64,000 nucleotides of DNA. Origin: a virus. The stretch spans positions 3,696-67,695 of the IMG/VR virus record IMGVR_UViG_2903506739_000001. One strand, given 5' to 3'. The translations under genes and the position numbers were made by a program. Position 1 is the stretch's first letter. The number at the start of each line of letters is the position of its first letter. The notes below the pieces were generated by a model, which worked only from the letters and a program-made list of their open reading frames with translations, was not told where the DNA came from and made no database searches. This document shows positions 3,674 to 61,891 of the stretch, piece after piece.

Positions 3674-3726
3674 GGCTTCGCTTCCCAACGATCAACCGCA
3701 ACAGCCATTTCGAAAGGACAAGGAAC

Positions 3727-6338: not shown

Positions 6339-6895
6339 GCGATCCGATCATCTATGACGATCCCTTCCGGCTGCGGGTGCAGAAGGCCCTGGCCGCCGCC
6401 ATCGGCAGCGTCAGCATTACCGGTGGCTACCATTTCGATCTGGCCGGCAAGGTGTTTCGCGGACGCGACCTTTTCGGCGACGCGAGCGATCCACTGCCCA
6501 TGGTGTCGATCCTCGAACCCCCGTTGCCGATCGACCAGTTGCGAAGCCCGCCGCTGGCATCGGAATCAAGCGGCGATTGGGACCTGCTCCTCCAGGGTTT
6601 CGTCAAGGACGATCCCGAAAACCCAACCGACCCGGCGCATCTGCTCATGGCCGACGTCAAGCGCCGACTGGCCGTGGAGAAGGCAAGGCTCATCCCCGGC
6701 AGCGCCGGCATGAGCGACCCGTTCGGCATGGGCAGAGGGCAGATCGTCAACGGCAAGGCCGTCAACTCGATCACCGAACTTAAGATTGGCCCTGGCGTCG
6801 TGCGCCCGCCAGAGCTTGGCGTTTCCACAAAGGCGTTCTTCTGGCTCGGCCTCAGCATGAAGATTGTTGAGGACATTTCGCAACCGTTCCTGTAA
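6335..6895 (+). CDS. tail terminator-like protein (U position)
   Basis: 186 aa ORF with a 4-nt overlap to the upstream gene. Assigned by synteny only. Confidence 0.3.
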   Translation: MSDPIIYDDPFRLRVQKALAAAIGSVSITGGYHFDLAGKVFRGRDLFGDASDPLPMVSILEPPLPIDQLRSPPLASESSGDWDLLLQGFVKDDPENPTDPAHLLMADVKRRLAVEKARLIPGSAGMSDPFGMGRGQIVNGKAVNSITELKIGPGVVRPPELGVSTKAFFWLGLSMKIVEDISQPFL

Positions 6896-6940
6896 AAGGG
6901 AATTCAACCGCCTGTGGATCAGGCGTACTAGGAGTGGAAC

Positions 6941-7741
6941 ATGGGAAAGATCACCAAATATACGCTCGGCCGCGGTGAAGTGCATTTCGCGCAGTTCCTG
7001 CCGGACACGCAGACCCCTGGCGGTTACCGCTACCTCGGCAATTCGCCGGAACTCTCGTTCAACGTCGAATCGGATGCGCTGGAGCACTACAACTCCGACC
7101 GCTTCATCAACGAGATGGACGCTTCGATGACGCTCAAGACGACCCGTTCGGGTCAGATCGTCACCGACGAAATCCTCGCCGAAAACCTCGCACTGTTCCT
7201 CTTCGGCAACTCCGACACGACCAGCGTCGCTGGCGGTGCCGTGGTCGACGAAATCATTGAAGGCGTCGTGCTCGATCGCGGTTACACGCTTGGCGTCAGC
7301 GACAACGATCCGATCGGCGTGCTGAAGGTCGCCTATCCGGGCACGGGCGGAACGCTGTTCTCGGTGAAGAATTCGGCCGGCTCCACGACCTACGTTGCTG
7401 GCGACGACTATGTCTGGAACGAGACCTCCGGCCTGCTGACGCCTCTGAGCGGCGGCGACATCACCGAAGGCCAGGACATCAAGGTCGGTTACACCGAGCT
7501 TGCCTACAACTACGAGCGCATCGTCTCGGCCGGCGAGCCGATCGCGGGCGCGCTCAAGTTCATCGCCTACAACCCGGCAGGCCCGTCGCGTAACTGGCTG
7601 CTGCCGTGGGTGCAGGTCAGCCCGAACGGCGACCTGAACATGAAGGGCGACGACTGGCAGAAGCTGCCCTTCAAGTTCCAGATCCTGCGCAAGGGCGCGC
7701 TCGAAGCCATCTACGTCAACGGAACTCCGTTCACGCCCTGA
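6941..7741 (+). CDS. major tail (tube) protein
   Basis: 266 aa ORF preceded by GGAG. It lies directly upstream of the chaperone/tape-measure pair, as expected for a siphovirus major tail gene. Confidence 0.55.
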   Translation: MGKITKYTLGRGEVHFAQFLPDTQTPGGYRYLGNSPELSFNVESDALEHYNSDRFINEMDASMTLKTTRSGQIVTDEILAENLALFLFGNSDTTSVAGGAVVDEIIEGVVLDRGYTLGVSDNDPIGVLKVAYPGTGGTLFSVKNSAGSTTYVAGDDYVWNETSGLLTPLSGGDITEGQDIKVGYTELAYNYERIVSAGEPIAGALKFIAYNPAGPSRNWLLPWVQVSPNGDLNMKGDDWQKLPFKFQILRKGALEAIYVNGTPFTP

Positions 7742-28345: not shown

Positions 28346-28668
28346 TGGCTCTTCCCGATCGAAGTTGGGGCCTCGACGTATCCGTGCTTCCTGGTGGTCT
28401 CGCGCAGCGACCTGCAAGCCCGTTCCAGGGCCAGACGCGCCGGACGCTCGTCGCTCGTGTACTTGGCGCCGTCGAGCCGTGTCAGAGCTTCGGCAACGGC
28501 GCGTGCGTCGCGCACCAGCCTGGCGTCGGCGGCGAGCGGTATCTTGACGCGCACGATCGGCGGCAGCGTCGCCGCCGCGATCTGCCTTTTGACGATCGGC
28601 TCCAACGCCCTGGCCAGTTGGACCGCCATGGAACGCTCACGGGGCGTCGACTCTTCGACCATGCTCAT
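28342..28668 (-). CDS. hypothetical protein
   Basis: 108 aa ORF. Its ATG overlaps the methyltransferase stop (ATGA). Confidence 0.45.
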   Translation of the reverse strand: MSMVEESTPRERSMAVQLARALEPIVKRQIAAATLPPIVRVKIPLAADARLVRDARAVAEALTRLDGAKYTSDERPARLALERACRSLRETTRKHGYVEAPTSIGKSQ

Positions 28669-30143
28669 CCAAGCAACTCCTCAAATAATCCACTGTCAGT
28701 TGAATTGATGTGCACGGGTACGGCATGCCTGTCGCCGTGCGGGCAGCCGCAGGGCATGCCGAGGTCGGCATCGCCGTAGAACCAGCCGCTGTTGCCGCAG
28801 TAATCGCATTCCGGCTCGCCGAGGAGGTCATCGAAATTGTCTGCCGGCGCGATCAGGCCGAGGCGGCAACGGATGTCGGCGGCATATTCGGCCTCCATTT
28901 CGATCAACACGGCTTTGCAGCCTTCATCGAGCGCGGCCTTGCCGGTGGTGCCGGTGCCGGCGAAGGGGTCGAGCACCGTGCCGCCCTTCGGCGTGATGTG
29001 GCGCACCAGCGACCTGATCAGGCCTGGCGGCTTCACTGTTGGATGAGCATCGATCGGCGCCCGCTTGCCGTCCGCACCGACGCAGCCGCAGGTTGGCCGG
29101 CCGATGAAACGCGTTCCGCAGCTGGTGCATTTGTTGATGCGGTCCTTCGACGATGCCTTGGCGTGATAGAGGATCGGCTGGCCGTCGAACGGGTAACTTT
29201 CGAAGAAGCGGGCGGCATTCGACGGAAAAAGCGCGGCAACTTCCGCTGACGCGTCGTGGGCGATGTTCGCCGGCCAGCGGCCGGGCGGATCGTAGTTGTC
29301 ACGGTCTTTGCTGAACTTGCCGTAAATCTGGTTCTGCATCGGCCCGCTGCCGAAATCCGCATGACGGTTTTTGCCCTTGGACTCGGCCTCGTCGTCGTCG
29401 TCGTGGAAGGGCACGCGGCAACCATCAATGTTCACGGCTCCGACGCCATGCTTGAGGATGTTCAGGGCACCGTTCTTCTCGGAGAATGGCTTCTGGCCGA
29501 CATAGATCGGTTCCAGCGCTGGTTTGCGCACCTGGCCGCCATAATGCCAGCCTTGCCACGCGGCGGCATCATCGGTCCCCGGCTCGTAGAGCCCCGGCTG
29601 GTATTCGCGGTTGTCGAGTTTCTCCCACGTGCCGTCCTTGTGCTGGTCGGCGCCGGGCCGAATGCGACGGACAGGATCGCCGGTCGGCACTGTCTTACCC
29701 TTGACGCCAAGCGCCTTGTCGACGGCAACAGCGGCGTTGTGGGCTTTCGGAAATCCGCTGGCGAAGCACCAGCCGATCATCGGATGGGTGATGAAGCCGG
29801 CGTCCTCGATCGCCGTCGCCATGCGGTGATAGGTGCGGCTCGAGGAGAAGGCGACGATGTAGCCGCCAGGCTTGAGCACCTGGAAAACGAGATGCCAGAA
29901 CTCGGGATCGTTCTCGATATCGGTGCCGTCCCACGTCCGGCCCATAAATCCCTTGGACTGGCGCTGGAAGGCGCCGTCGCGGCCGGGCTTGGCCGGCTTG
30001 GCATTCTCCTTGCCGAACCGCTTGACAACGCTCTTGAGGCCGTATGGCGGGTCAGAGCAGACCGAGTCGACCTGCTCCCCGCGTTCGATCATACCGTTGA
30101 GCACGGCGCGGGCGTCGCCCTCATGAAGCGTGATCGCCTTCAT
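28665..30143 (-). CDS. DNA methyltransferase, beta-class amino-MTase (N6-adenine or N4-cytosine; DPPY near N-terminus, FxGxG near C-terminus) with Cys-rich insertion; C-terminal FEELLG tail
   Basis: 492 aa ORF. Motif IV SDPPYG lies at ~aa 30. Motif I LDPFAGTGTTG lies near the C-terminus. A zinc-ribbon-like segment CTSCGTRFIGRPTCGC lies between them. Confidence 0.8.
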   Translation of the reverse strand: MKAITLHEGDARAVLNGMIERGEQVDSVCSDPPYGLKSVVKRFGKENAKPAKPGRDGAFQRQSKGFMGRTWDGTDIENDPEFWHLVFQVLKPGGYIVAFSSSRTYHRMATAIEDAGFITHPMIGWCFASGFPKAHNAAVAVDKALGVKGKTVPTGDPVRRIRPGADQHKDGTWEKLDNREYQPGLYEPGTDDAAAWQGWHYGGQVRKPALEPIYVGQKPFSEKNGALNILKHGVGAVNIDGCRVPFHDDDDEAESKGKNRHADFGSGPMQNQIYGKFSKDRDNYDPPGRWPANIAHDASAEVAALFPSNAARFFESYPFDGQPILYHAKASSKDRINKCTSCGTRFIGRPTCGCVGADGKRAPIDAHPTVKPPGLIRSLVRHITPKGGTVLDPFAGTGTTGKAALDEGCKAVLIEMEAEYAADIRCRLGLIAPADNFDDLLGEPECDYCGNSGWFYGDADLGMPCGCPHGDRHAVPVHINSTDSGLFEELLG

Positions 30144-42027: not shown

Positions 42028-44001
42028 TCAGACTCCCGCGTCCAGAGTGACCAGAACCGTTGCCGTTGCGGTTCCCGACTCCTTGAATGAACCGGCCTGC
42101 AGGTCGAGCTTTTCGCCGCTCATACGGTCGAACCAATCGCGAAAGCTTGCCGCCTTGTTGTCCTGGCGGAAGAACGGACCAGGCGACATCACGGCAATAA
42201 GCTTGCCGCCTGGTCGCAACATCGAATGAGCGTGGCGCACGTGCTCGATATCCTGCCCGTTCTCAAAGGGCGGATTCATCAGCACACGGTCGAAACGTGG
42301 TCCGCGCTCGGCTTCCATGAAATCGGCGCCGGCTACCGTGTAGCCTTTCAGCGCCAGGATCTCGCGCAAACTGTTGTGCCGTTCATACGTTGTCAGCCGA
42401 GCGGCTGGAAACCGCTCCCGCACCATGTCCAGAATTGCCGCGCTGCCGCCTTCCGGTTCCAACATATCGAAGGCGCCGGCCGGCATGTCGGCAAGGTAAA
42501 TCATGCGTTCGATCACGGCGCCGGGAGTCGGGAAAAAGCCCGGAATGTTGGCGAACTGCAGCGCCTGAACCTTGCGGCGCAATTCTTCGGCCTTGCGGCT
42601 TTCGTCGCTCGGCTTGTCCAGCAAAGCCCAAATGGCGCGCGCCGCTGGCGTGTCGAGCGACGGTTTTCCCGTGTCTATGCCCGCGTCATAGTAGCCGGCG
42701 CGGGAGCGATCGATAACGGTTCCGACAAGCTCGAAAGCCGCTTTCTTGGAAGTGACGCGCGCAAGCTCTGGCGCGATGGTTCCTGCCTCATGCTGACCAG
42801 CCAAAGCCCGCAAGGCGGCTTGCGTGCGCTGCAGCCTGTAACCGTCCAGACGTGCCGAGTCTGCCTCGCGTTGCCGCTTTGGCGTGTTGGTCAGACGGTC
42901 GCGCATCTTGCCGTCAATCTCGCCTTGCATGTCGTCGGCAAGCCGCCGAAGCTTGTCCGCCATGTCGGCACGCGGCGCGGCCTGCTTGATCTCGTCAACG
43001 GCCGACTCGGCTACCGGCTGGACGGTCGAACCTGCGAACGATTCCGCCTTGTCGCGAACCTTGAAAGCAAAGCCGCCTGGCGTCCGTCCCCATGGTTTGG
43101 AATACCAGCCGCCGAGCTCTTCCGCCTTGTCGCGCAAGGCGTCGAAGGTCTCACGGTCGACACGCTCGGGCATGATGCAAATGAACATCTGAAAGCCCTT
43201 TTTCGTGTGCGTGTGTTCTTCGATCGTCATTCCAGCCGCGGCGACGGTCTGGACGGCAGCGGGCGGCACGGGAGCGGCCAAAGCCCAATCGGCCGTTGGC
43301 AGTTGTCTGACCGGTTCCGAAGAGTCCCAAAACCGTTGTTTGCGCACCTGCCATCCGCTTGAATAGCGTCCGCCGACTTTCAGGAAATAGCCGGCGCCCA
43401 TGCTCCATTTCTGGCGGTTTTCCGCCGACTCTGGCGCGTCGACCAAATGCGCGGTTTCGGGCAGGTTTGCAGCCGCCTTGCGCATCTCGGGAAACAGGTC
43501 GCGCGAATGGCTGGAAAAGCCGAGGATGACGGTTCGAACGGTTTTGCCGCCGAAATAATCCGTCATCGAGTCGCTTTCATCCTTGATCAGTTCGGCGACG
43601 ATGACGGCTTTTGCCCATGCCGGAATCTTGCCGGCCGCGTCCGCTTCGAACGCCTGGCGCGCCTGCTTTGCCGAATCCCGATCGGCTGCAGCCTTGTCAA
43701 AGGCGTCGCGTTGCGCCAGGCGTGCGGCTTGCATGCGCGCTGGTATCTCGGCAGCCGGAACAGTCGGCAGGTTCGCGCGCCGTGCCCGCTCTATGAACGG
43801 CGCCGCAATGCCGTCTGCTAGTTCGGAAATCGGCGCCGTGAGACGATCGAACACGCAAACGAATTCGTTGCGGACTTGCGCCATGCCGGCGCCGATCACG
43901 AACGATTTTGTTTCTGGTGCCTTGATCTCGGCAATGAATCCGCGATTTCCGTAGTGGTCGATAAGAGGCGTTCCGATAGAGATTTCAACGTGCTGGTTCA
44001 T
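42028..44001 (-). CDS. large protein with C-terminal N6-adenine DNA methyltransferase domain (NPPF motif)
   Basis: 657 aa ORF. C-terminal SAM-MTase motifs (LEPEGGSAAIL … VLMNPPFENGQD). The ~400 aa N-terminal region is of unknown function. Confidence 0.7.
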   Translation of the reverse strand: MNQHVEISIGTPLIDHYGNRGFIAEIKAPETKSFVIGAGMAQVRNEFVCVFDRLTAPISELADGIAAPFIERARRANLPTVPAAEIPARMQAARLAQRDAFDKAAADRDSAKQARQAFEADAAGKIPAWAKAVIVAELIKDESDSMTDYFGGKTVRTVILGFSSHSRDLFPEMRKAAANLPETAHLVDAPESAENRQKWSMGAGYFLKVGGRYSSGWQVRKQRFWDSSEPVRQLPTADWALAAPVPPAAVQTVAAAGMTIEEHTHTKKGFQMFICIMPERVDRETFDALRDKAEELGGWYSKPWGRTPGGFAFKVRDKAESFAGSTVQPVAESAVDEIKQAAPRADMADKLRRLADDMQGEIDGKMRDRLTNTPKRQREADSARLDGYRLQRTQAALRALAGQHEAGTIAPELARVTSKKAAFELVGTVIDRSRAGYYDAGIDTGKPSLDTPAARAIWALLDKPSDESRKAEELRRKVQALQFANIPGFFPTPGAVIERMIYLADMPAGAFDMLEPEGGSAAILDMVRERFPAARLTTYERHNSLREILALKGYTVAGADFMEAERGPRFDRVLMNPPFENGQDIEHVRHAHSMLRPGGKLIAVMSPGPFFRQDNKAASFRDWFDRMSGEKLDLQAGSFKESGTATATVLVTLDAGV

Positions 44002-50538: not shown

Positions 50539-52962
50539 TTAGATGTCGAAATCGTCTTTTTCGTCTTCTTCGATCTCGACGACCGGCTCGGAATGCCAGA
50601 CGATCTCGGAGCCTAGGAAGGTCTCGAAGGCCTGGCGGCATTCCTCGAGCGGCGGGAAGGCGTACTGGTTGAGGCGCTGGCTGCCGTCGCGCGGGCGGCG
50701 CGTCTCGATCGCTGGCACCAACTGGCGCATGACCTTGCCGAAATGGACCTCGTTGAGTTGCTTGCCCTCATAGCGCCGGCTGTGCATCCACCCAACATAG
50801 GTGTCGTAGAAATCACCCTTGTCGACAACGGCTTTTTCCTTCCACCAGTCGCCCTCGGCGTCGGCGGAAATGCGCCCTGATTCGAGCATGTCGAACCACC
50901 AGTGCTCGACGTTTTTCAAGCCTTCGATCTTCTGCTCGCCGAGCGCGATCGTGTCGGGCACGGCGCGGACATTGAAGCGGCTCAGATCGTAGTTCAGCAG
51001 ATAGTGCAGAAGGCCTGCCCGACCGCCGTTGCGCATCTCGTGCCGGATGGCGGCGAAATAGGCATGGTCGCCCTTCTTCGTCGGAGGCACGTCGAGCACG
51101 AAATAGCGGCGCTCGTCCTCGGTCGCCGGCACCACCCACTTTTCGTTCGACGACATGAACAGGCGAAGCACGCTGTCGATGTGGTAGCCGTTCAGGCCCT
51201 TTGGTTCGATGAAGAGGCTTTCCGTCGTGATCAGGTGCTTAAGCACGCCTTCGGCGTTCTTGGAGCCCGCCCAAAAGCCCTCCTCGACATGCAGCAACAG
51301 GCACTTTTCCATGTGCGCGTTGAACTTGCCGGTGAGCTGATCCTGGTTGGCGATCTTGACGTGATGGTGCGGAAACAGTCCGCCGACGTAATCGGCGATC
51401 GTGTCCTTGCCGACGCCCTTCTTGCCGCGGAGCACCATGGCGACGCCGGGCTTTTCTTCTGGCCGCTGGATCATGTGCGCCCACCATCCGAACGTGTAGT
51501 TTGCAGCCCGCTCGTCGTTCGAGCAGATCACCTTTCTCAGGTGCGCCAGGATGAGGCGACAGGAGGCTTCCGGGTCGGGCTCGACGGAGAACCCGCGCCA
51601 GTGGTTATAGGCCCCCTTGACCTCGCGCCCTGGTGCGAAGACCACGCCGTTCGAATACTCACGCCTGAGCTTGTGGCGCATCCACGCCTTGGTGACCGGC
51701 TCGGTCGCCTTGTCGGTGGCAACGCGGTCGTTCTCATAAAAGTTGTGGAGATCGCCGACCGTGCCGAGCGCGACAGCGCCGTCATCCTTCTCGGTCAGGA
51801 TTGCCGTCTTGCCGTTGAGGAACACGACTGCGTGCTTGTTGTTGAGACGCTTCACCTTGGGCGGCACGTGCCCTAGCGCCGCCTCGACGTCGGCCTTCTT
51901 CAGCTTCGTCTCGCGCTTGCTCTGTTTGGGCGCCCGCCCCCCGCCGCCGAGCAGGTCGTCAAACTCGTCGGCTACTGGCTTCTCGTCGAGATCGGAATCG
52001 GTGTCGAAATCGTCGCCGTCTTCGAGGTTGTCGAATTCCTCGGACAGTCTGGCCTCTCGCACGGCATTGACGACCGTGCGCATCGTGATCAGCTTGCGTC
52101 CTTCCTTGTGTTTGAAGGACCAGAATTTGAATTTCGTCGTCTTGTCGTCGTTCTTGTCGGATGCTCGCGACCAATCCAGGAAGGCCTTGTAGAACTGCTG
52201 TCGCTCGTCCTTGCTGCGGCCTGAACTCTCGTGGCTGACGGCGGCCATGACCTCGAGCCATTGGTCGTAGTCGAGGCTCTCGTTGGGGTAGTCCTTGAGG
52301 AGGTTGCGGACCTCGTCGACCGTGAGGCCGAGCGGCTTGGCGCGCTCAGGATCTTGCTCGCCGGCATCGTCATCGCCGTCGACAACCTTTTGCAGGATCT
52401 CGGCCGGCACGAACGGCCCGTCGCCGAGCAGAAGCGAGTCGAAATCGAATTGCTTCAGCCAACGGTAGGGCTTGCCGGTGTCGGGATGGATCGACGCGGG
52501 GATGACGACCTGCTTGCCGGTGCCGTAGAGCTCGATTTCCCATCGCCAGCGCATCTTGCCATCGGCGCACACCATCTTCTCATCGCTGTGGGCAAGCTGC
52601 CGCGAGGAAAAAGGCTTGTCGCTCAACAGGTAAAAATGGCGGCTCTCGCCGCCCGAACCTGAAATGACGGTCGGCCAGTCGGCCGATTCGGGGAAGAGCA
52701 CAGCGACCTTGGCGCGCGCTTCGTCCGCTAGGGATGCGTCACGAACGTCGAGGTCGATGACGTGCATCCAGTGGTCGCCGACCTTCGACCATTTGCCAAG
52801 GCGGACGCCGACATTGTTGCCGTTGCGGTAGGTCTTCCTGAGCTTTTCGAGGGACGCGACTGGTTTGTCCTGCCAATCGTCGCCGACCGGCCGTTTCGAC
52901 TTCGGATGAAGCCAATGGATGGCAAAGCCCGCACGGGCAAGGTGCTCAATGTGGGCGAGCAT
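50539..52962 (-). CDS. bifunctional primase-polymerase (prim-pol N-domain) / D5-like SF3 helicase; acidic C-terminus EIEEDEKDDFDI
   Basis: 807 aa ORF. N-terminal prim-pol-like region. C-terminal P-loop (MVLRGKKGVGKDTIADYVGG), as in P4 alpha / D5 NTPases. Confidence 0.7.
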   Translation of the reverse strand: MLAHIEHLARAGFAIHWLHPKSKRPVGDDWQDKPVASLEKLRKTYRNGNNVGVRLGKWSKVGDHWMHVIDLDVRDASLADEARAKVAVLFPESADWPTVISGSGGESRHFYLLSDKPFSSRQLAHSDEKMVCADGKMRWRWEIELYGTGKQVVIPASIHPDTGKPYRWLKQFDFDSLLLGDGPFVPAEILQKVVDGDDDAGEQDPERAKPLGLTVDEVRNLLKDYPNESLDYDQWLEVMAAVSHESSGRSKDERQQFYKAFLDWSRASDKNDDKTTKFKFWSFKHKEGRKLITMRTVVNAVREARLSEEFDNLEDGDDFDTDSDLDEKPVADEFDDLLGGGGRAPKQSKRETKLKKADVEAALGHVPPKVKRLNNKHAVVFLNGKTAILTEKDDGAVALGTVGDLHNFYENDRVATDKATEPVTKAWMRHKLRREYSNGVVFAPGREVKGAYNHWRGFSVEPDPEASCRLILAHLRKVICSNDERAANYTFGWWAHMIQRPEEKPGVAMVLRGKKGVGKDTIADYVGGLFPHHHVKIANQDQLTGKFNAHMEKCLLLHVEEGFWAGSKNAEGVLKHLITTESLFIEPKGLNGYHIDSVLRLFMSSNEKWVVPATEDERRYFVLDVPPTKKGDHAYFAAIRHEMRNGGRAGLLHYLLNYDLSRFNVRAVPDTIALGEQKIEGLKNVEHWWFDMLESGRISADAEGDWWKEKAVVDKGDFYDTYVGWMHSRRYEGKQLNEVHFGKVMRQLVPAIETRRPRDGSQRLNQYAFPPLEECRQAFETFLGSEIVWHSEPVVEIEEDEKDDFDI

Positions 52963-53040
52963 GCCGTGGCCCTTTGTGCCCGACGCCTGGTCGAGATGGA
53001 ACGAGCGAAATCATGAACCCAAACCCCCGGATTCGGGGCT

Positions 53041-53370
53041 TCAGGAGAGGAACTGCCAGAAATCCTCGCGGGTCGCAGGCACGAATTCGCGACCCCTCTT
53101 TCGCTGATTCGCGGACAGCTTGACGATCTCCTCAACCTGCTTTGCGGGGATACGATTCGCGCGCCCTGGCTTGAACCACTTATAGACGCCCTGCCGCGTC
53201 ATATCGAGCTTCTCAGCCAGGCGGTCCAGGTCGCAGACGCCGTCTCGCGCATGCATGAAATCAGGCAAGGCCTGGGTCAGAAGATCATGCAGGGGTCCGC
53301 GGCTCGAGCGTGCCTTGCGGCGCTTCTTCGCCGGAGCCATGCCGAGCATGTCGTCAATGTCGATTGTCAC
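53041..53370 (-). CDS. HTH transcriptional regulator (Cro/CII-like early regulator)
   Basis: GTG start with AGGGAG 8 nt upstream. HTH segment LDRLAEKLDMTRQGVYKWF. First gene of the leftward operon from the divergent control region. Confidence 0.55.
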   Translation of the reverse strand: MTIDIDDMLGMAPAKKRRKARSSRGPLHDLLTQALPDFMHARDGVCDLDRLAEKLDMTRQGVYKWFKPGRANRIPAKQVEEIVKLSANQRKRGREFVPATREDFWQFLS

Positions 53371-53519
53371 TCTCGCATCTCCCTCGTTACGGACACAAAG
53401 CCTAACCGACCCCAAATTAATATTCAACTGCCAATTGACATGTTCAACTTTACGGTCAACTATTCAGCCAACGCATCGACCCGAGCGGCGGGCGTTTCAG
53501 CAACGAACCGGAGATAGAC
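53371..53519. promoter_or_regulatory. divergent early control region with multiple TTCAAC/GTCAAC half-sites and a TTGACA-N17-AACTAT promoter-like element facing right
   Basis: The sequence …TATTCAACTGCCAATTGACATGTTCAACTTTACGGTCAACTATTCAGCC… lies between divergent genes. Confidence 0.45.
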
Positions 53520-53972
53520 ATGAGCCTGGAAGAAGCCCTGAACCGTAACAACGAACTGCTTGCCGAGCATAACGACCTTCTCAAGAAGGTACTCGGCGCC
53601 GCTGCCAACAAGGCCGGCAAGACCGAGGAAACCGCCGCCGCTGGTTCCGGCAAGGGCGGCAAAGGCAAGGCCGACAAGAAGGAAGACGCTTCCGCAGAAT
53701 TCGACGCCGACGCGCTGAAGGCGGCAATCGCCAAGGCCGGCACCTGGCTCGGCGAGTTCAAGGACAACGAGGCCGATGGCGAGACCCAGGCGCGCAAGGA
53801 CAAGCTGCGGCAGGCGCTCGACAAGCTCGGCTACAAGCTCGCCAAGGACATCAACAAGGCGGAAGACGTGAAGCGTTTCGAGACCTGGGTCGAGAAGCAG
53901 ATCGCGGCCGGCCGCATCACGCCCGAGCCGGAAGAAGCCGGCGAGGAAGCCTCGAGCGAGGACGACATCTAG
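53520..53972 (+). CDS. Lys/Ala/Glu-rich hypothetical protein; acidic C-terminus
   Basis: 150 aa ORF. First rightward gene. Confidence 0.45.
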   Translation: MSLEEALNRNNELLAEHNDLLKKVLGAAANKAGKTEETAAAGSGKGGKGKADKKEDASAEFDADALKAAIAKAGTWLGEFKDNEADGETQARKDKLRQALDKLGYKLAKDINKAEDVKRFETWVEKQIAAGRITPEPEEAGEEASSEDDI

Positions 53973-54033
53973 GCGGCGACCTGACGGAGGCCTCGGCGCC
54001 CACTCTTCCAACCAAGAGGGGCGTCGGGGTTTT

Positions 54034-54100
54034 CCGGTGGGGTGGCGCGCACGGATGCAAGCCTGATCAGCGGGGGTTCGAGTCCCCATCGCCATCCTTC
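54034..54100 (+). other. tRNA-like 3' fragment (T-arm GGGGGTTCGAGTCCCC plus 7-bp acceptor-like pairing GGGTGGC/GCCATCC); not a complete tRNA
   Basis: A T-loop consensus TTCGAGT is present. Only ~58 nt fold; there is no D-arm/anticodon arm and no CCA. Confidence 0.3.
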
Positions 54101-54125
54101 CAGAAAACCCAACAAGGCTCGATCG

Positions 54126-54323
54126 ATGATCGTACCTGGTGCCAAAGACACGGACCCATTCGCCTCATGCGTCGGCAAGGAGCAGTTCGACTCGGCCGAA
54201 AAGGCGATGAAAACGGTCAAGAACCACAACAAGCGCAAACACCGCGTCGTTGTGGCCGCGTACCGCTGCCAGCATTGCGGTTCCTATCACTTGGGCACCA
54301 AGCGGTCAGGTAGCCGGCGATGA
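54126..54323 (+). CDS. small Cys-containing (zinc-finger-like) protein
   Basis: Start at M29 of the track ORF. Contains C…C…CQHC. Confidence 0.35.
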   Translation: MIVPGAKDTDPFASCVGKEQFDSAEKAMKTVKNHNKRKHRVVVAAYRCQHCGSYHLGTKRSGSRR

Positions 54324-54520
54324 GCCCGTGGCTACTCCTGTTCGTGGCCTTCGGTGGCGGCGACGAAATTTCCGGCAAGCAGGTCTTTGCCGACCGTCCC
54401 GCATGCGAAACCCGCGCGGTCGAAATGAGCATCGCCGCGGCTCCGGACAGAGTGATTTTCCAGTGTGTCGACGCCCGCACCTGGCAGCAGATCCAAGACG
54501 AATTCGGCGTCGAGTTCTGA
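54320..54520 (+). CDS. hypothetical small protein
   Basis: 66 aa ORF with an ATGA overlap. Confidence 0.35.
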   Translation: MSPWLLLFVAFGGGDEISGKQVFADRPACETRAVEMSIAAAPDRVIFQCVDARTWQQIQDEFGVEF

Positions 54521-54541
54521 ACAATCAAAGGAGGCCCTCAC

Positions 54542-55174
54542 ATGTTCAAGAACCATCTGCTGTATCGCATCGTCATCTTTAACGGCTTCATCGGCGCCTT
54601 CCTGTTGTGGGCGTGGATGCATGGCTACGTGCAGCGCATTCTTGCCGGCGAGACGACCGGCATCGGCTATGTGATGATCACGGTGTTCGTACTGGCGTTC
54701 TGCGGCCTCATGGTGCGGGTGCAGAAGGCCTCGAACGCATTCAACGAGGTCAAGGCCGGCACCTACGTCGACGTGCGCAAGCTGGCGATCAAAAGCAGTT
54801 TCGTGGCGGCGGTCGGCGTCTGGCTCGGCATGCTCGGCCTGATAGGCAACATCCTCGGCTTCAGCCAAGCGGTGGAATCGCTCAACGTCGCTGGCGGGCC
54901 GGATGCCGCGCTGCAGTCGATCGCCGGCATGACGGCGGGCATGAAGGTCGCCTTTTACACGACTCTCGTCGGCATTTCACTTGGCCTCTGGCTCGGTGTC
55001 AACAGCCACATCCTGAACACGACGATCGCACTGCTCAAGATCGACGCTGAGGCGCTTAAGGTGCCTTTCCAACAGAAGGTCACGCTCAACAACATCCTTG
55101 ACGGCAAGTCCGTGAACAAGGCGTTCGAAGCGGCGCGCGCGTCCGTGGCTGCCGAACTGGCCGTCAAGGGCTGA
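54542..55174 (+). CDS. MotA/TolQ/ExbB-family proton-channel protein
   Basis: 210 aa ORF with three TM helices. Family-typical segments WLGMLGLIGNILGF and AFYTTLVGISLGLWLGV. RBS AAAGGAGG upstream. Confidence 0.65.
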   Translation: MFKNHLLYRIVIFNGFIGAFLLWAWMHGYVQRILAGETTGIGYVMITVFVLAFCGLMVRVQKASNAFNEVKAGTYVDVRKLAIKSSFVAAVGVWLGMLGLIGNILGFSQAVESLNVAGGPDAALQSIAGMTAGMKVAFYTTLVGISLGLWLGVNSHILNTTIALLKIDAEALKVPFQQKVTLNNILDGKSVNKAFEAARASVAAELAVKG

Positions 55175-55179
55175 CCACC

Positions 55180-55776
55180 ATGAACAACGAGATGGAAGAA
55201 CTCAACGGCATCGCCTGGCGCGATGTCCTGATGAACACGGTCATCGGTTTCGTCTGCATCATCGGCGTCATGGCGCTCATGATCACCATGAAGGCCAAGG
55301 CCGAGCAGGAGGGCGCGATCCCGCCCGGCAACCTGATCGTCCACGCAGTCTGGCCGAGCGGCGACACGGATATCGATCTGTGGGTCAACGGCCCTGGCGA
55401 GCCGGTTCCGGTTGGTTATTCAAACAAGGGCGGCCTGCTCTGGAACCTGCTGCGTGATGACCTCGGCATCCAGCCGGACGCCACCGACATCAACTACGAG
55501 GACGCGGCGACCCGTGGCGTTATCGGCGGCGAGTACACCATCAACGTCCATTGCTACCGGTGTCCGACGCTGCCGCAAAAGGTCGATCTCGAGGCCTCGA
55601 TCAACACGGGCGAACCCGGCAAGGCATCGCTCAAGGTGCTCGCCACGACGCACGTCACCTTGGTCAGCGCAGGTCAGGAAGCCACCGGCATGAACTTCAT
55701 CTTGCGAGAAGACGGCACGATCGAGCCAAATTCTCTCAACCAGGTTTTCCGCCCCTTGCGGTCGGGAAAGAAATGA
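55180..55776 (+). CDS. ExbD/TolR/MotB-like bitopic membrane protein (Asp at start of TM helix)
   Basis: 198 aa ORF. The segment WRDVLMNTVIGFVCIIGVMALMI resembles the ExbD/TolR TM with its conserved Asp. A ~150 aa periplasmic domain follows, with no OmpA-type PG-binding motif. Confidence 0.4.
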   Translation: MNNEMEELNGIAWRDVLMNTVIGFVCIIGVMALMITMKAKAEQEGAIPPGNLIVHAVWPSGDTDIDLWVNGPGEPVPVGYSNKGGLLWNLLRDDLGIQPDATDINYEDAATRGVIGGEYTINVHCYRCPTLPQKVDLEASINTGEPGKASLKVLATTHVTLVSAGQEATGMNFILREDGTIEPNSLNQVFRPLRSGKK

Positions 55777-56333
55777 GGCCGACCACCATGGACAGAATCA
55801 TTCTTGCGCTGATCCCCTCCAACGGCGTCAGCATCACCGTCTGGCTCGTCCTGACGGCCATTCTCGCCGCGATGGCACTCATCGCTATATGGGCGCGCCG
55901 GCCGACAGCGGCACGCACATTGGCGGTGCTCAGCCTGCTCCTGTTCAGCCCGATCGCAGGCGCCGCCGTGTGGCTGTGTCTCGGTTGGCCGGTGCCCTAC
56001 GTCGAAGGCCTCACTGTGAAGCCGGGCAAGCACATGATCCTCGGTGTGAAGGCACTTATCGGCGACGGTATCTACGTGCTTCTGGATCTCGGCGGCGAGG
56101 CACCGCGGTATTACAAGATGCCGTGGAACGACCGCACCGCCGAGCAGATGCAAAAAGCACTCGACGAGCGTGCCGCTGGCGGTGAGGGATCGACGGCCGG
56201 TGTCGAGGTCAAGCCGTTCGAATTCTCCTGGGACACGCACCCGCCGCAATTTTGGGCGGACCCGCAGCCGAAGGTGCTTCCGGACAAGCCGCACCAGGAA
56301 GAACCGATGCATGCGCCAGGGCAGGATATCTGA
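55773..56333 (+). CDS. 2-TM membrane protein with Pro-rich C-terminus (possible third component of the stator-like module)
   Basis: 186 aa ORF with an ATGA overlap to the upstream gene. Confidence 0.35.
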   Translation: MRPTTMDRIILALIPSNGVSITVWLVLTAILAAMALIAIWARRPTAARTLAVLSLLLFSPIAGAAVWLCLGWPVPYVEGLTVKPGKHMILGVKALIGDGIYVLLDLGGEAPRYYKMPWNDRTAEQMQKALDERAAGGEGSTAGVEVKPFEFSWDTHPPQFWADPQPKVLPDKPHQEEPMHAPGQDI

Positions 56334-56335
56334 CG

Positions 56336-56599
56336 ATGAGCGGCACGCGCGAGCGGCTTTACCTTGATGCGGCACGGCGGGCAGGTCTCGCCGTGCCTGA
56401 CGACTGGCGCTCCTACCACAAGGATGCGTTCCCGCACTATCACGTGTTTGCGACGATGCAACGGGCGCGCAAAGACGCGGCGAAGAAGACGGTTTTCGCC
56501 AGCGCGCGGATCGTCGCCAAGGTCAGCGCGGAGGAGACGAAGACGCTCAGCCTCTACCATTTCATGCAACTCGGTTTCGACCTTTCTTCGAGGGAGTGA
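56336..56599 (+). CDS. hypothetical protein
   Basis: Start at M29 of the track ORF. Confidence 0.35.
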   Translation: MSGTRERLYLDAARRAGLAVPDDWRSYHKDAFPHYHVFATMQRARKDAAKKTVFASARIVAKVSAEETKTLSLYHFMQLGFDLSSRE

Positions 56600-57831
56600 T
56601 GGGCCACTCCAAACACTCGCCGTCCGGCGCATCTCTATGGATGGGTTGCGCCGGCGCGCTCAATCGCATCAAGAAGCTTGGCATAAAGGATGACCGCACC
56701 AGCATCCATGCGGCCGAAGGCACCGCGGCGCATTGGGTGCGCGAGCAGTGCCTGGAATTCGGCTTCGAGCCGCACGATTTTCTCGCTACCAAGATCCAGG
56801 CGGACGGCTTCGACTTCGTGGTCGACGACGGCATGGCGACAGCGCTGGTCGAGGGCGTCGACCGTTGCCGCGAACTGACAATGCCAGAGGCCTCGAGCGG
56901 CGTTGAACTGCGCGTTGACACGACGCCGTGGGTCGGCCCCGACGACCATGGCGAGCCGCAAGGCGGCACGGTCGACTATTACGCGATCAGTGGCCCGGAG
57001 TTCTATCTCGAGGAGTGGCTGCTGAGCGACCTCAAATTTGGCGCCGGAATCGCCGTGTCGCCAGTGCGCAACAAGCAGCAGATGATCTACGCGCTCGGGC
57101 TGCTCAACAGCTTTCCGGATTACCATCCGCCGAAGCGATTCCGCATCATCATCGACCAGCCTCGAAACTCTGCCGGTGGCGGCGAGTGGGTCGTTTCGAT
57201 CGAAACGCTCCTAGCCTTCGGCGAAGAGGTCAAGCGCGCCGCGGCGGCGACGCGTGATCCTGATGCGCCCTGCACGCCGTCCGATACCGCCTGCCAATGG
57301 TGCCCGCTGACCAAGATTGACGGCGCGTGTGTCGAGCACGAAGCGTGGAAACTCGACATGCTCGGGCTAGATTTCGACGACCTCGACGCAGACGACGAAC
57401 CTGCGCTGCCCGATATCGACGGCTTGAGTCCGCAGCGGCGCCGCTACATCAACCAGCATGCCCACCTGATCACCAAATGGTTGAAAAGGCTGCATGCCGA
57501 GGAAATCCACGACGTCATCACCAAAGGTCCGGCGAACGGCGTCAAGGCCGTATCCGGCCGCATGCCGCCGCGCAAACACAGGGATGAAAAGGCGTCAGAA
57601 GCCTGGCTGAAAAAGCGTCTTTCGCCTGACCGTCTATTCCACCAACAGTTGATTAGTGTCGCGCAACTTGATAAAGTGCTCGGCAAAGGGGTGTTCCCGA
57701 AATCCCTCGTCGACCAGGGCGATCCGAAGCCGGTTCTTGTGCCGGTGGAAGACGAAAGGCCGGCCATCATCAGAGACGACGAGTTCGATGACTTGGATGC
57801 CGAAGATGATGCTTTCGATGATGACTTCTGA
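56599..57831 (+). CDS. PD-(D/E)XK Cas4/RecB-like exonuclease (DUF2800 family); acidic C-terminus DDAFDDDF
   Basis: 410 aa ORF with a C-terminal Cys cluster (C…CQWCPL…C). It occupies the position upstream of a gp2.5-like SSB and Pol A seen in many siphophage replication modules. Confidence 0.6.
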   Translation: MGHSKHSPSGASLWMGCAGALNRIKKLGIKDDRTSIHAAEGTAAHWVREQCLEFGFEPHDFLATKIQADGFDFVVDDGMATALVEGVDRCRELTMPEASSGVELRVDTTPWVGPDDHGEPQGGTVDYYAISGPEFYLEEWLLSDLKFGAGIAVSPVRNKQQMIYALGLLNSFPDYHPPKRFRIIIDQPRNSAGGGEWVVSIETLLAFGEEVKRAAAATRDPDAPCTPSDTACQWCPLTKIDGACVEHEAWKLDMLGLDFDDLDADDEPALPDIDGLSPQRRRYINQHAHLITKWLKRLHAEEIHDVITKGPANGVKAVSGRMPPRKHRDEKASEAWLKKRLSPDRLFHQQLISVAQLDKVLGKGVFPKSLVDQGDPKPVLVPVEDERPAIIRDDEFDDLDAEDDAFDDDF

Positions 57832-60658: not shown

Positions 60659-61891
60659 ATGAGCAAAGCCTATTACAACGAGATCGACAAATACGCTGCC
60701 ACATGGCTGCGTAACCTGATCACGGCAGGGCTCATCGCGCCCGGCGACGTGGACGAGAGGGACATCCGTGACGTTCGACCTTCTGACCTCAGAGGCTACA
60801 CACAAGTTCACGCATTTGCAGGCATTGGCGTCTGGTCGTATGGACTTCGACGGGGGGGCTGGCCAGACGATCGACCCGTCTGGACAGGTAGTTGCCCTTG
60901 CCAACCTTTCTCCGCGGCAGGCCGAGGAGATGGGTTTGTTGACGAGCGGCACCTTTGGCCGCATTGGCACCATCTCATCGCAGAGTGCCGACCTGATGAG
61001 GTCTTTGGAGAGCAAGTTGCGTCAAAGGACGGCCTTGCTTGGCTCGACCTTGTATTCGCTGACATGGAAGGAACGGGCTACGCCATTGGGGCGCTCGATA
61101 CCTGCTCTGCGGGCAGCGGCGCGCCGCACATCCGGCAAAGGCTCCGATTCGCAGCCTACCATCAACGACTTGCCGCAGGTCGGTTGGGCGACTGCTTGGG
61201 CCGAGGATGGCGAGAGCGCCGGCATGCGATGGAACCGGGGCATAGCGGACACGCTGACGGCGCAGGCCTCCTTGGCTGGCTGGACGACGACCACGACGAG
61301 GGATTGGAAGGATTCGGGCGCGGATATCACGCCTCGACCAGACAACGGCAAGGATCGGTTCGACCAATTGCCGAGACAGGCGAATTTGACGGGCTGGCCC
61401 ACGGCACAGAGTCGAGACGGCAGTCACGGGGGCGGACAGTCTACGAGAACAGCGGGGAACCGTCGCAACCTGGACGACTTCGCGATGTTGACTGGTTGGG
61501 GGACACCGAATGCATCGGCGCCGGGCGGCACGCCAGAACAGGCGTTGCAGCGGAAAGAGGGCACCGGAGCGGGTCTTTCGGTAACGACGCTGGATCATCA
61601 GGTGCAATTGGTCGGCCCGGCCCGACTAACGGCCACTGGCGAGACGCTGATTGGCTATTCTGCCGGGATGGCAAGTGGCGGCCAGTTGAACCCAACACAT
61701 TCCCGTTGGCTCATGGGGCTACCTCCCGAGTGGGACGGTTGCGCGCCTACGGCAACGCAGTCGACGCGGAAGCCACGCGCATCTTCATCGAAGCGTATCT
61801 CGACCGCGAGACGCTCGAACTTGAGCCCGTACGAGAGACTGCTACTGGCGGTCCTGAATTAAACGCTTCCTTTGATGATCTGCTTGGTTAG
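60659..61891 (+). pseudogene. C5-cytosine DNA methyltransferase with internal frame disruption (motifs I, IV, VI, VIII and X in one frame, the GWxTP-repeat region in the +1 frame); C-terminal FDDLLG tail
   Basis: Frame A (60659→~61150) carries [24 protein letters not shown] and RQRLRF. Frame A then degenerates into Arg/Gly noise. The overlapping frame B (track ORF 60768..61862) carries LTWKERATP / LAGWTTTT / LTGWPTAQ / LTGWGTP repeats and [12 protein letters not shown]. Frame A resumes with [10 protein letters not shown] at ~61.75 kb. Confidence 0.55.

Follow-up and report, generated by a model that had tools for sequence, protein, structure and literature searches.

What do three adjacent genes for small membrane proteins do in the replication module of a Mesorhizobium phage? 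The question is raised by positions 54542-56333 of the window analysed here (64,000 nucleotides, positions 3,696 to 67,695 of the IMG/VR record IMGVR_UViG_2903506739_000001), where the open reading frames of the proteins denoted P1, P2 and P3 follow one another on the + strand; the coordinates of all three were confirmed. The trio belongs to a same-strand gene run which extends from a divergent gap near 53430-53520 on into the replication genes. It is surrounded by small phage ORFs, with a primase gene (50539-52962, - strand) nearby and genes for a DUF2800/Cas4-like exonuclease, a gp2.5-like SSB and a DNA polymerase downstream, in agreement with the replication-module setting described in the initial annotation. 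Portal, capsid and tape-measure genes are located elsewhere in the window. A scan of 52900-57000 for sigma-70-like promoters gave none, and the terminator-like matches in it were not convincing. No riboswitch or other RNA element was found upstream of the trio in 17 cellular loci or in the window, and isolated phages yielded no close relative of 53000-57000 at the nucleotide level.

P1 (54542..55174, +) consists of 210 amino acids, and a GGAGG ribosome-binding site (54530..54534, +) can be read 7 nt 5' of its start codon. Hydropathy predicts four helices (approximately residues 5-25, 36-58, 84-107 and 135-158), an arrangement that would correspond to the MotA-type topology, with the sidedness read from the charge distribution. 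The predicted cytoplasmic loop is K/R-rich and 25 residues long, which leaves almost no cytoplasmic domain. The C-terminal extension of ~30-50 aa is missing from the seven closest homologues, and some phage versions of P1 are reduced to just the four helices (129-141 aa), the 25-residue loop being absent from them. The core of the protein (residues 79-160, 54776..55021), formed by helix 3, the periplasmic loop and helix 4, matches Pfam PF01618 (MotA_ExbB) with 24.4 bits and E 2.7e-5, which clears the gathering score of 22.9 by 1.5 bits only. The same Pfam family is matched by five of eight close relatives of P1, and precomputed, unmarked PF01618 matches are present in its relatives at cellular loci. 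The best match of the P1 family profile in the PDB is 8vvn_C (E 1.3e-6), a solved ZorA-like chain of 696 aa with a MotA/TolQ/ExbB domain, and it covers helices 3 and 4 together with the loop. The core residues conserved family-wide among 129 unique members are G99, G102, G106, G133, A137 (codon 54950..54952), T141, G144 and W150; the glycines and threonine of helices 3-4 (G99, G102, G106, G133, T141, G144) are 95-100% conserved. Judged by these profile matches, P1 is a member of the MotA/TolQ/ExbB superfamily, as had been proposed from its hallmark membrane segments. The ExbB/TolQ-like size ascribed to it at the same time proves to be a superficial resemblance, considering the four helices, the short cytoplasmic loop and the fact that ZorA models are its best sequence matches (PADLOC, E 6.6e-6; NCBIfam ZorA_2, E 1.2e-5).

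The gene of P2 (55180..55776, +; 198 aa), the putative dimeric "axle" subunit, starts 5 nt past the P1 stop. In the protein, an N-terminal trans-pore helix that includes R14-D15 is joined through a short PPGN linker to a TerD-like beta-sandwich. The only hydrophobic helix seen in the hydropathy profile covers residues ~16-38, with R14-D15 just before it, so placed that D15 (codon 55222..55224) may serve as a proton-binding Asp at the cytoplasmic helix end. All of 38 sequences share this residue, and 138 of 149 relatives have it. The 11 relatives without it comprise three truncated ORFs with no residue at this column, one alignment shift in which the Asp is kept, and seven members of one clade. 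The sandwich, predicted to be extracytoplasmic (residues ~48-176, 55321..55707), carries highly conserved motifs: W58..D64-x-D66-L-W68, PVGYSNKGG, NLLRDDLG, N105-x-E107 and E167-x-T169. Homologues of P2 fall into more than 1805 clusters, none with a Pfam domain, and all 120 homologues among the matches listed are at least 50% identical to P2, some of them in non-phage cellular contexts. Cys125 and Cys128 were considered as a disulfide or metal site; they are invariant in close relatives and are not conserved across the wider family, and thus do not constitute a defining feature of P2.

The AF2 model of P2 (pLDDT 80) places its domain, by fold search, in the TerD-type beta-sandwich fold, the best BFVD match being a tellurium-resistance-like protein. 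In sequence this relationship is hardly visible: one of 38 family members gives a weak match to Pfam TerD (PF02342, E 0.04), and no match is significant. Neither P2 nor its 38 relatives match Pfam (PF02472 included), NCBIfam or PDB sequences significantly, and the family profile finds only a chance-level match to reelin among the latter. PHROGs, PADLOC and NCBIfam contain nothing for P2 or P3. The domain adopts neither the ExbD/TolR-type alpha/beta periplasmic fold nor the C-terminal OmpA-like peptidoglycan-binding fold of the MotB/ZorB type. According to these comparisons P2 is not a member of the ExbD/TolR/MotB family to which the initial annotation had likened it, even though the single N-terminal helix and the conserved Asp on which that likeness was based are both real. 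The linker between helix and sandwich has only ~10 residues, so peptidoglycan should be out of reach, unlike in MotB and ZorB, and a stator would lack an evident anchor; this counts against a motor.

A closer connection between P1 and P2 is suggested by a natural exchange of acidic residues. At nine of nine loci of one viral clade, FRD in P2 is replaced by FR(G/A/T), and the helix 4 position corresponding to A137 of P1 is occupied by Glu. Among ~138 loci with the P2 Asp, no P1 has an acidic residue at this position. Since the Asp is lost in P2 and a Glu is gained in P1, the relocation argues for direct contact of the two proteins and for one required buried carboxylate. Only this clade shows the exchange, which probably arose once in evolution.

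The third protein, P3, probably starts at 55788 (55788..56333, +; 181 aa), because a GAGG site lies 9 nt ahead of the ATG at this position and 181 aa is also the length of the NCBI-source protein. The alternative start at 55773 (+) would give 186 aa and overlaps the P2 stop as ATGA (55773-55776). It had been taken as the start initially; the overlap itself is there, as are the two helices and the Pro-rich tail described along with it. P3 consists of two hydrophobic helices forming a hairpin, a small domain and the Pro-rich C-terminus. The hairpin (residues ~11-65, 55818..55982, +) is seen both in the hydropathy profile and in the AF2 model (helices 11-37 and 41-65), although the overall confidence of the latter is low (pLDDT 62). 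Its loop is Arg-rich (RRPTAAR) and has a conserved IW(A/S)RR..R motif, which by the positive-inside rule would put the C-terminal domain outside the cytoplasm. The tail (56190..56330, +; pLDDT <50) is disordered over ~45 residues, much shorter than the TonB/TolA linker, and contains the conserved motifs FEFSWD and PQPKxLPDKP; among 48 diverse members, P159 and K167 reach a conservation of at least 90%. The P3 family comprises 859 representative clusters; among the 150 of them listed, most are 140-200 aa long, with no sign of domain fusion. A fold search with the P3 model returned generic helical hairpins only and, at a pLDDT of 62, is uninformative. Pfam detects no TonB_C or TolA domain in P3, whose tail ends in a short motif rather than a domain, and no SHLS-type motif or His can be read in its helices.

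The initial annotation regarded a stator-like module inside a phage replication module as unusual. This has to be revised: the trio is a recurrent phage cassette and a chromosomal operon of Alphaproteobacteria, and it is not rare. Its carriers number 59 among IMG/VR contigs and 10 among isolated rhizobiophages, and it is present in at least 582 species genomes, most of them alphaproteobacterial. Phage 16-3 is a classical temperate rhizobiophage; its trio is p038/p040/p042, and a further one is found in phage RHph_X2_25. The proteins are annotated only as "hypothetical", and no description of the trio was found in the literature, the AP-16-3/16-3 paper included. The order P1-P2-P3 on one strand, mostly with abutting or overlapping genes, is kept at 135 of 150 loci in phages, prophages and chromosomes. 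The remaining loci are accounted for by contig ends, by a clade that has P3 placed upstream and by another in which the HMM misses P1 because of its divergence, although inspection shows it to be present. Thus the three genes are strictly co-conserved and occur together in essentially every complete locus. The initial annotation had been made to depend on profile searches placing P1 in the MotA/ExbB family and on co-conservation of the three genes in related phages; with P1 found in that family and the trio kept together in related and unrelated phages alike, it holds on both points. No fourth conserved gene or conserved neighbourhood was found around the trio beyond lineage-specific small ORFs. 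The cellular copies examined are free-standing operons flanked by transport, metabolic and regulatory genes and not by defence genes. Cultured species with the operon include Azospirillum isscasi, Skermanella aerolata and Virgifigura deserti. Among phages the site differs, being the early region here and in 16-3, and the interval between portal and scaffold in another clade, so that expression timing gives no clue to the role. The carriers include temperate phages and prophage-like regions as well as virulent-looking or jumbo-sized contigs, and the trio genes of some phages are separated by small ORFs or homing endonucleases.

Most likely, the trio is related to the proton-driven Ton, Tol, flagellar-stator and Zorya motors, among which it would be a very small and undescribed form. 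That P1, P2 and P3 form one ion-driven membrane machine of the "5:2 motor" kind, carried by phages as an accessory cassette, we regard as slightly better than an even chance. As P2 and P3, for all their established architecture, match no known family, their roles are assigned solely from that architecture and from position; proton coupling, topology and the role of P3 are what we infer. P1, a stripped-down MotA/ExbB-family subunit, would form the ring, and the N-terminal helix of P2 would be inserted in it with Asp15 as the proton-binding residue; a 5:2 stoichiometry of P1 and P2 is presumed by analogy. P2 would thereby take the ExbD/TolR/MotB role, its TerD-like sandwich replacing the ExbD or OmpA-like domain on the outer membrane face. 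P3 would be anchored by its hairpin, exposing the small domain and the extended Pro-rich tail on the same side as the P2 sandwich, and could act as a partner or force-transducing element, that is, a functional analogue of TonB/TolA without homology to them. Since P1 is almost devoid of a cytoplasmic domain, the output of such a machine must be in the membrane or the periplasm. The cassette would be an accessory ("moron" or AMG-like) module common to alphaproteobacterial chromosomes and their phages.

The known systems each share a part of this arrangement. As in ExbB-ExbD-TonB and TolQ-TolR-TolA, three membrane proteins are encoded together, the first being a PF01618 subunit, the second having a single N-terminal helix with an Asp of the essential type and the third predicted to expose a Pro-rich, probably extended segment outside the membrane, with the output expected in the periplasm. 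ExbB and TolQ, however, have three helices and a large cytoplasmic domain, in contrast to P1 with its four helices and almost no such domain; P2 has its TerD-like sandwich and no PF02472 match in place of the ExbD/TolR fold, and P3 has a two-helix hairpin lacking the SHLS/His motif and the TonB_C/TolA domain. With MotA-MotB and PomA-PomB the trio shares the four-helix A subunit and a B helix whose cytoplasmic end carries an Asp, whereas P1 is devoid of the cytoplasmic torque-generating domain and P2 of the OmpA-like one. GldL-GldM and PorL-PorM, the type IX secretion and gliding motor, also combine a B-type subunit with beta-sandwich domains outside the membrane, and the key carboxylate is carried there by the ring subunit GldL, as by P1 Glu137 in the variant viral clade. 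No sequence relationship of these proteins with the trio was detected, however; in addition, GldL is a two-helix protein and the long GldM comprises four periplasmic domains. TerD-family proteins resemble the P2 domain in fold; they are soluble, have no helix anchoring them to a MotA-type partner and show no significant sequence similarity to P2. Another parallel are the proposed TolQ-like genes with non-ExbD vWA partners that keep only the Asp-bearing trans-pore helix (PMC12204202). In both cases a ring of the MotA/TolQ family would be combined with a dimeric partner made of an Asp helix and an unrelated extracytoplasmic domain, but the trio has a TerD-like sandwich instead of vWA, one P2 gene instead of a heterologous pair, a dedicated third protein and frequent phage carriage.

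The nearest relative of P1 by sequence is ZorA, and ZorB likewise is a B-type partner with an Asp-bearing helix. The trio might therefore be a defence or superinfection-exclusion device, namely a tail-less Zorya-like envelope sensor which detects or blocks incoming phage at the envelope. Such a function would suit the ZorA models and 8vvn_C as best matches of P1, the moron-like behaviour of the cassette, which changes position among phage genomes and has no conserved chromosomal neighbourhood, and its presence in temperate phages and prophage-like regions. Nevertheless, P1 (210 aa vs ZorA profiles of 461-780 positions) lacks the long ZorA tail, which is needed for Zorya function (PMC11946911), and its score with NCBIfam antiphage_ZorA_2, 24.5 bits, is far below the cut-off of 100. 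P2 has no ZorB peptidoglycan-binding domain. No ZorC/ZorD, ZorE, ZorF/G-type or any effector domain was found in or beside the trio, and PADLOC gave no matches for P2, P3 and the upstream ORFs. The ordinary chromosomal contexts of the cellular copies, the occurrence on virulent-looking or jumbo-sized contigs and the conservation of P2, unusually high for an immunity gene, are also at odds with defence, which we consider rather unlikely as an account of the whole trio.

The lack of any cytoplasmic torque-generating or large scaffold domain in P1, most pronounced in the smallest phage versions, brings to mind a regulated proton leak, in which P1 and P2 would be a gated channel depolarising the membrane for lysis timing or host shutdown, with P3 as gate or regulator and no mechanical output. 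Unplugged stator complexes are known to leak protons, and preservation of the buried carboxylate by relocation is expected if ion conduction is the purpose. Still, a stable chromosomal operon of many free-living bacteria hardly fits a device for lysis or toxicity, conservation is stronger in the P2 sandwich and the P3 tail motif than in the channel, and no consistent linkage to lysis genes is observed, all of which makes a leak quite improbable. Scarcely better is the prospect of a TerD-type metal stress module, where Ca2+ or some other ion would be bound by P2 on the outer side of the membrane and be sensed or transported by the system, in analogy to ter operons. The tellurium-resistance-like BFVD match, the single weak Pfam TerD match and the invariant Asp-rich motifs (D64-x-D66, RDD, D100, N105-x-E107) point to it; the similarity, however, is at the level of fold only, no other ter genes are located near the trio, and ion binding by the sandwich would in any case be compatible with a motor and not exclude it. 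Finally, the small ORFs and homing endonucleases between the genes in some phages would fit three mere neighbours with no joint function. This is very improbable given the order and strand kept in ~150 loci of chromosomes, prophages and many viral clades while the surroundings change, the start and stop codons that abut or overlap in most of them, and the covariation of P1 and P2 residues.

If the trio is indeed a motor, its role in phages may be to supplement or alter a host envelope process during infection, an assignment we favour tentatively and hold at somewhat less than an even chance. Superinfection exclusion or defence as the task of the motor is unlikely, and equally so is some other task; control of membrane potential or lysis timing is a poor candidate. 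It is conceivable, though again short of probable, that the trio represents a separate, undescribed class of ion-driven 5:2 motors distinguished by an axle of its own kind (the Asp helix joined to the TerD-like sandwich) and by a particular partner, P3, that is not TonB. With a ring subunit of 129-210 aa, no smaller motors of this type would be known; they would be kept across many phage lineages and Alphaproteobacteria, and phages would employ them to act on the host envelope, either mechanically or through ion coupling.

Known 5:2-type motors power processes as different as flagellar rotation, nutrient uptake, outer-membrane maintenance, gliding, secretion and phage defence. The search for further members is active (PMC12204202), and the trio would contribute a minimal form in which both the axle domain and the partner are new. 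Its tiny ring subunit together with the natural Asp-to-Glu relocation would offer a convenient system for studying how proton flow is coupled to movement. If the proposed function is true, an envelope motor would add a category to the auxiliary functions of phages, and the presence of the trio in phage 16-3 should make the question of a phage envelope motor directly testable.

The window is phage or prophage DNA and encodes a portal, head protease, major head protein, tail protein, a tape measure of 1661 aa, primase, DNA polymerase and several DNA methyltransferases. Methyltransferase-like genes number at least three (28665–30143 (−), 42028–44001 (−) and 60768–61862 (+)), and the C-terminus of one 657-aa product matches very large phage methyltransferase families. 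A divergent gap near 53430–53520 is followed by a run of (+)-strand ORFs. It is formed by three small ORFs (53520–53972, 54042–54323 and 54320–54520), the candidate ring subunit P1 (54542–55174, with a strong GGAGG site), the candidate axle P2 (55180–55776, starting 5 nt past the P1 stop), the third membrane protein P3 (ending at 56333) and an 87-aa ORF (56336–56599), and continues into genes for a DUF2800/Cas4-like exonuclease, a gp2.5-like SSB and the DNA polymerase. All three proteins of the trio are identical to those of Mesorhizobium sp. B2-8-9 (454-kb contig). Two ATG codons, at 55773 and 55788, are candidate starts of P3. The ATGA overlap described in the initial annotation is present, but as the start of P3 it is less likely than the ATG at 55788, which has GAGG 9 nt upstream and agrees with the 181-aa NCBI-source protein. 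The 10-mer GACCACCATG occurs at 55173–55182 and again at 55781–55790, in each case running up to and including a start codon (that of P2, and the probable one of P3); this may represent a shared translational-coupling context or chance. As for the small ORFs, the 93-aa product of 54042–54323 has a C-terminal CxxC-containing segment (YRCQHCGSYH), and its best match among several PHROGs of unknown function has E 2.7e-4; that of 54320–54520, directly 5' of P1, has a signal-peptide-like N-terminus and two Cys. A conserved 100-aa secreted-type protein is encoded immediately 5' of P1 in the Mesorhizobium prophage-like group (collected loci L001, 9511–9813, and L004, 4979–5281).

Collection of neighbours of P1/P2 homologues, species genomes and IMG/VR contigs gave 150 loci. 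The species genomes were the best 80 of at least 582 matching, mostly Alphaproteobacteria (including Geminicoccaceae, Rhodospirillales, Kiloniellales, Hyphomicrobiales, Skermanella, Azospirillum and Virgifigura); the viral sample comprised 59 IMG/VR contigs. Iterated HMMs on ORFs found P1, P2 and P3 in the same order and strand, mostly abutting, in 135 of the 150 loci, which bears out the expected co-conservation in related phages. The remainder are contig ends and two exceptional clades, one with P3 ~1.1 kb upstream and the other with a P1 too divergent for the HMM, where P1 is nonetheless evident as a 136–152 aa four-helix protein directly 5' of P2. No other gene conserved beside the trio was found in the collected loci. 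HNH or Seg-like homing endonuclease genes lie between P2 and P3 in L004–L006 and L091 (about 6606–7106) and in phage RHph_X2_25 (L153, 5550–6092), and the small ORFs p039 and p041 are interspersed in the trio of phage 16-3; the trio tolerates interruption yet stays together.

P1 is a true, if minimal, MotA/TolQ/ExbB-superfamily protein, as follows from profile matches, four-helix hydropathy and conserved residues. Residues 79–160 match Pfam MotA_ExbB barely above the gathering score (24.4 vs 22.9 bits). Five of eight close relatives match as well, and in cellular loci PF01618 matches are found in the P1-type genes. The family profile has one match among solved structures, 8vvn_C (a 696-aa MotA/TolQ/ExbB-domain chain, E 1.3e-6), with helix 3, outer loop and helix 4 of P1 aligned. 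Residues G99, G102, G106, G133, T141, G144 and W150 are 95–100% conserved among 129 unique members. The family assignment made initially is thus upheld, but its ExbB/TolQ-like aspect holds for length alone: the topology resembles that of MotA and the sequence that of ZorA, with weak matches far under the ZorA cut-off (PADLOC, NCBIfam). By hydropathy, the cytoplasmic side is limited to a 25-residue K/R-rich loop, which reaches ~55 residues in Rhodospirillales-type cellular copies and is absent in 16-3, RHph_X2_25 and several viral contigs, giving putative ring subunits of 129–141 aa.

P2 had been read as an ExbD/TolR/MotB-type partner. The Asp-bearing helix is the sole feature it has in common with ExbD, TolR, MotB and ZorB; its outer domain, joined by a ~10-residue linker, differs in kind, and P2 with 38 relatives gave no matches in Pfam, PHROG, NCBIfam, PADLOC or PDB sequences. 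The family is large and strongly conserved (>1805 clusters; the 120 matches listed all share 50% or more identity with P2 of the window). P3 likewise has no family match in Pfam, PHROG, NCBIfam or PADLOC; an exhaustive profile search gave 859 representative clusters, and the 150 matches listed are mostly 140–200 aa with no domain fusion seen. Conserved in P3 are a two-helix hairpin whose connecting loop is Arg-rich (IW[A/S]RR..R), GIY..LD and PR.Y.LPW motifs within a small beta-rich domain, and then a helix followed by a disordered tail that ends in FE.SWD ... PQPKxLPDKP. By the positive-inside rule, domain and tail are predicted to lie outside the cytoplasm. The structural model is poor (pLDDT 62), and the fold search made from it is meaningless.

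In one viral clade (L105, L107, L110–L114, contig-end L120 and L131) FR[G/A/T] replaces FRD of P2, so that the Asp (D15, codon 55222–55224 (+)) is missing. All nine of these loci have Glu at the position of P1 A137 (codon 54950–54952 (+)), which lies in helix 4, three positions N-terminal to the conserved Thr pair; all others have Ala, and none of ~138 loci retaining the P2 Asp has an acidic residue there. The buried carboxylate thus appears to have been relocated from the P2 helix to P1 helix 4 as a compensatory change, and Asp loss and Glu gain probably were a single evolutionary event.

Among isolated phages the trio is present in ten, every one of them a rhizobiophage, with its genes annotated 'hypothetical' throughout (p038, p040 and p042 of 16-3 are P1, P2 and P3). 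Its position is variable: the early/replication region in the window, 16-3 and Mesorhizobium prophage-like regions, and between portal (DUF4055) and scaffold genes in L105, L110 and relatives. Viral P2 falls into many viral-only groups at 50% identity, and therefore the cassette is long established in phages. Since it also occurs on jumbo-sized contigs (L115, L125 and L135; IMG/VR, 196–256 kb) and in the 171-kb rhizobiophage RHph_I1_18 (MN988519), temperate siphovirus-like phages are not its sole carriers. A Trypsin_2 peptidase gene lies <200 bp upstream in 16-3 (p036, L152 4247–5146; typically periplasmic according to the record) and RHph_X2_25 (L153 3592–4239), which could be a functional link or coincidence. 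P2 relatives of 42–50% identity in MAGs assigned to CPR (labelled Saccharibacteria, Patescibacteria or Parcubacteria; L016, L036, L055) and to further non-proteobacterial phyla (L015, L029, L042, L085) more likely reflect mis-binned phage or alphaproteobacterial contigs than true hosts. The surroundings of the examined cellular copies are ordinary, neither prophages nor defence islands, with ABC and CitMHS transporters, aldehyde dehydrogenase, ketopantoate reductase, histidine kinase, LysR and Crp regulators and PhoD as flanks. In Allomesorhizobium and Ensifer (L150 6110–7309; L151 6095–7312) the cellular operon lies downstream of a 74–80 aa ORF and of a Crp/Fnr-type regulator gene in divergent orientation; with guanylate-cyclase-domain genes nearby, this arrangement hints at cyclic-nucleotide control.

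Read parsimoniously, the trio most likely encodes a 5:2-type motor driven by protons. P1 would form the ring, a P2 dimer the Asp-bearing axle with TerD-like sandwiches on the outer face, and P3 a membrane-anchored partner extending its tail into the periplasm; output would be periplasmic, as in Ton/Tol. The trio lies outside the ExbD, TonB and Zorya families because it lacks defining features of these families that were tested. TolQ-like rings with non-ExbD partners keeping just the Asp 'trans-pore helix' have published precedent (PMC12204202). Superinfection exclusion or defence, depolarisation or lysis timing, and a metal/Ca2+-linked role are possible. We favour a physiological envelope function, supplied or reinforced by phages during infection, given that the trio forms operons in cellular genomes and that its outer domains are strongly conserved. 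No prior description was found in the literature searched, and NCBI names P1 generically and P2 and P3 'hypothetical'. The trio is widespread, minimal and phage-borne, and phage 16-3 should make it testable.
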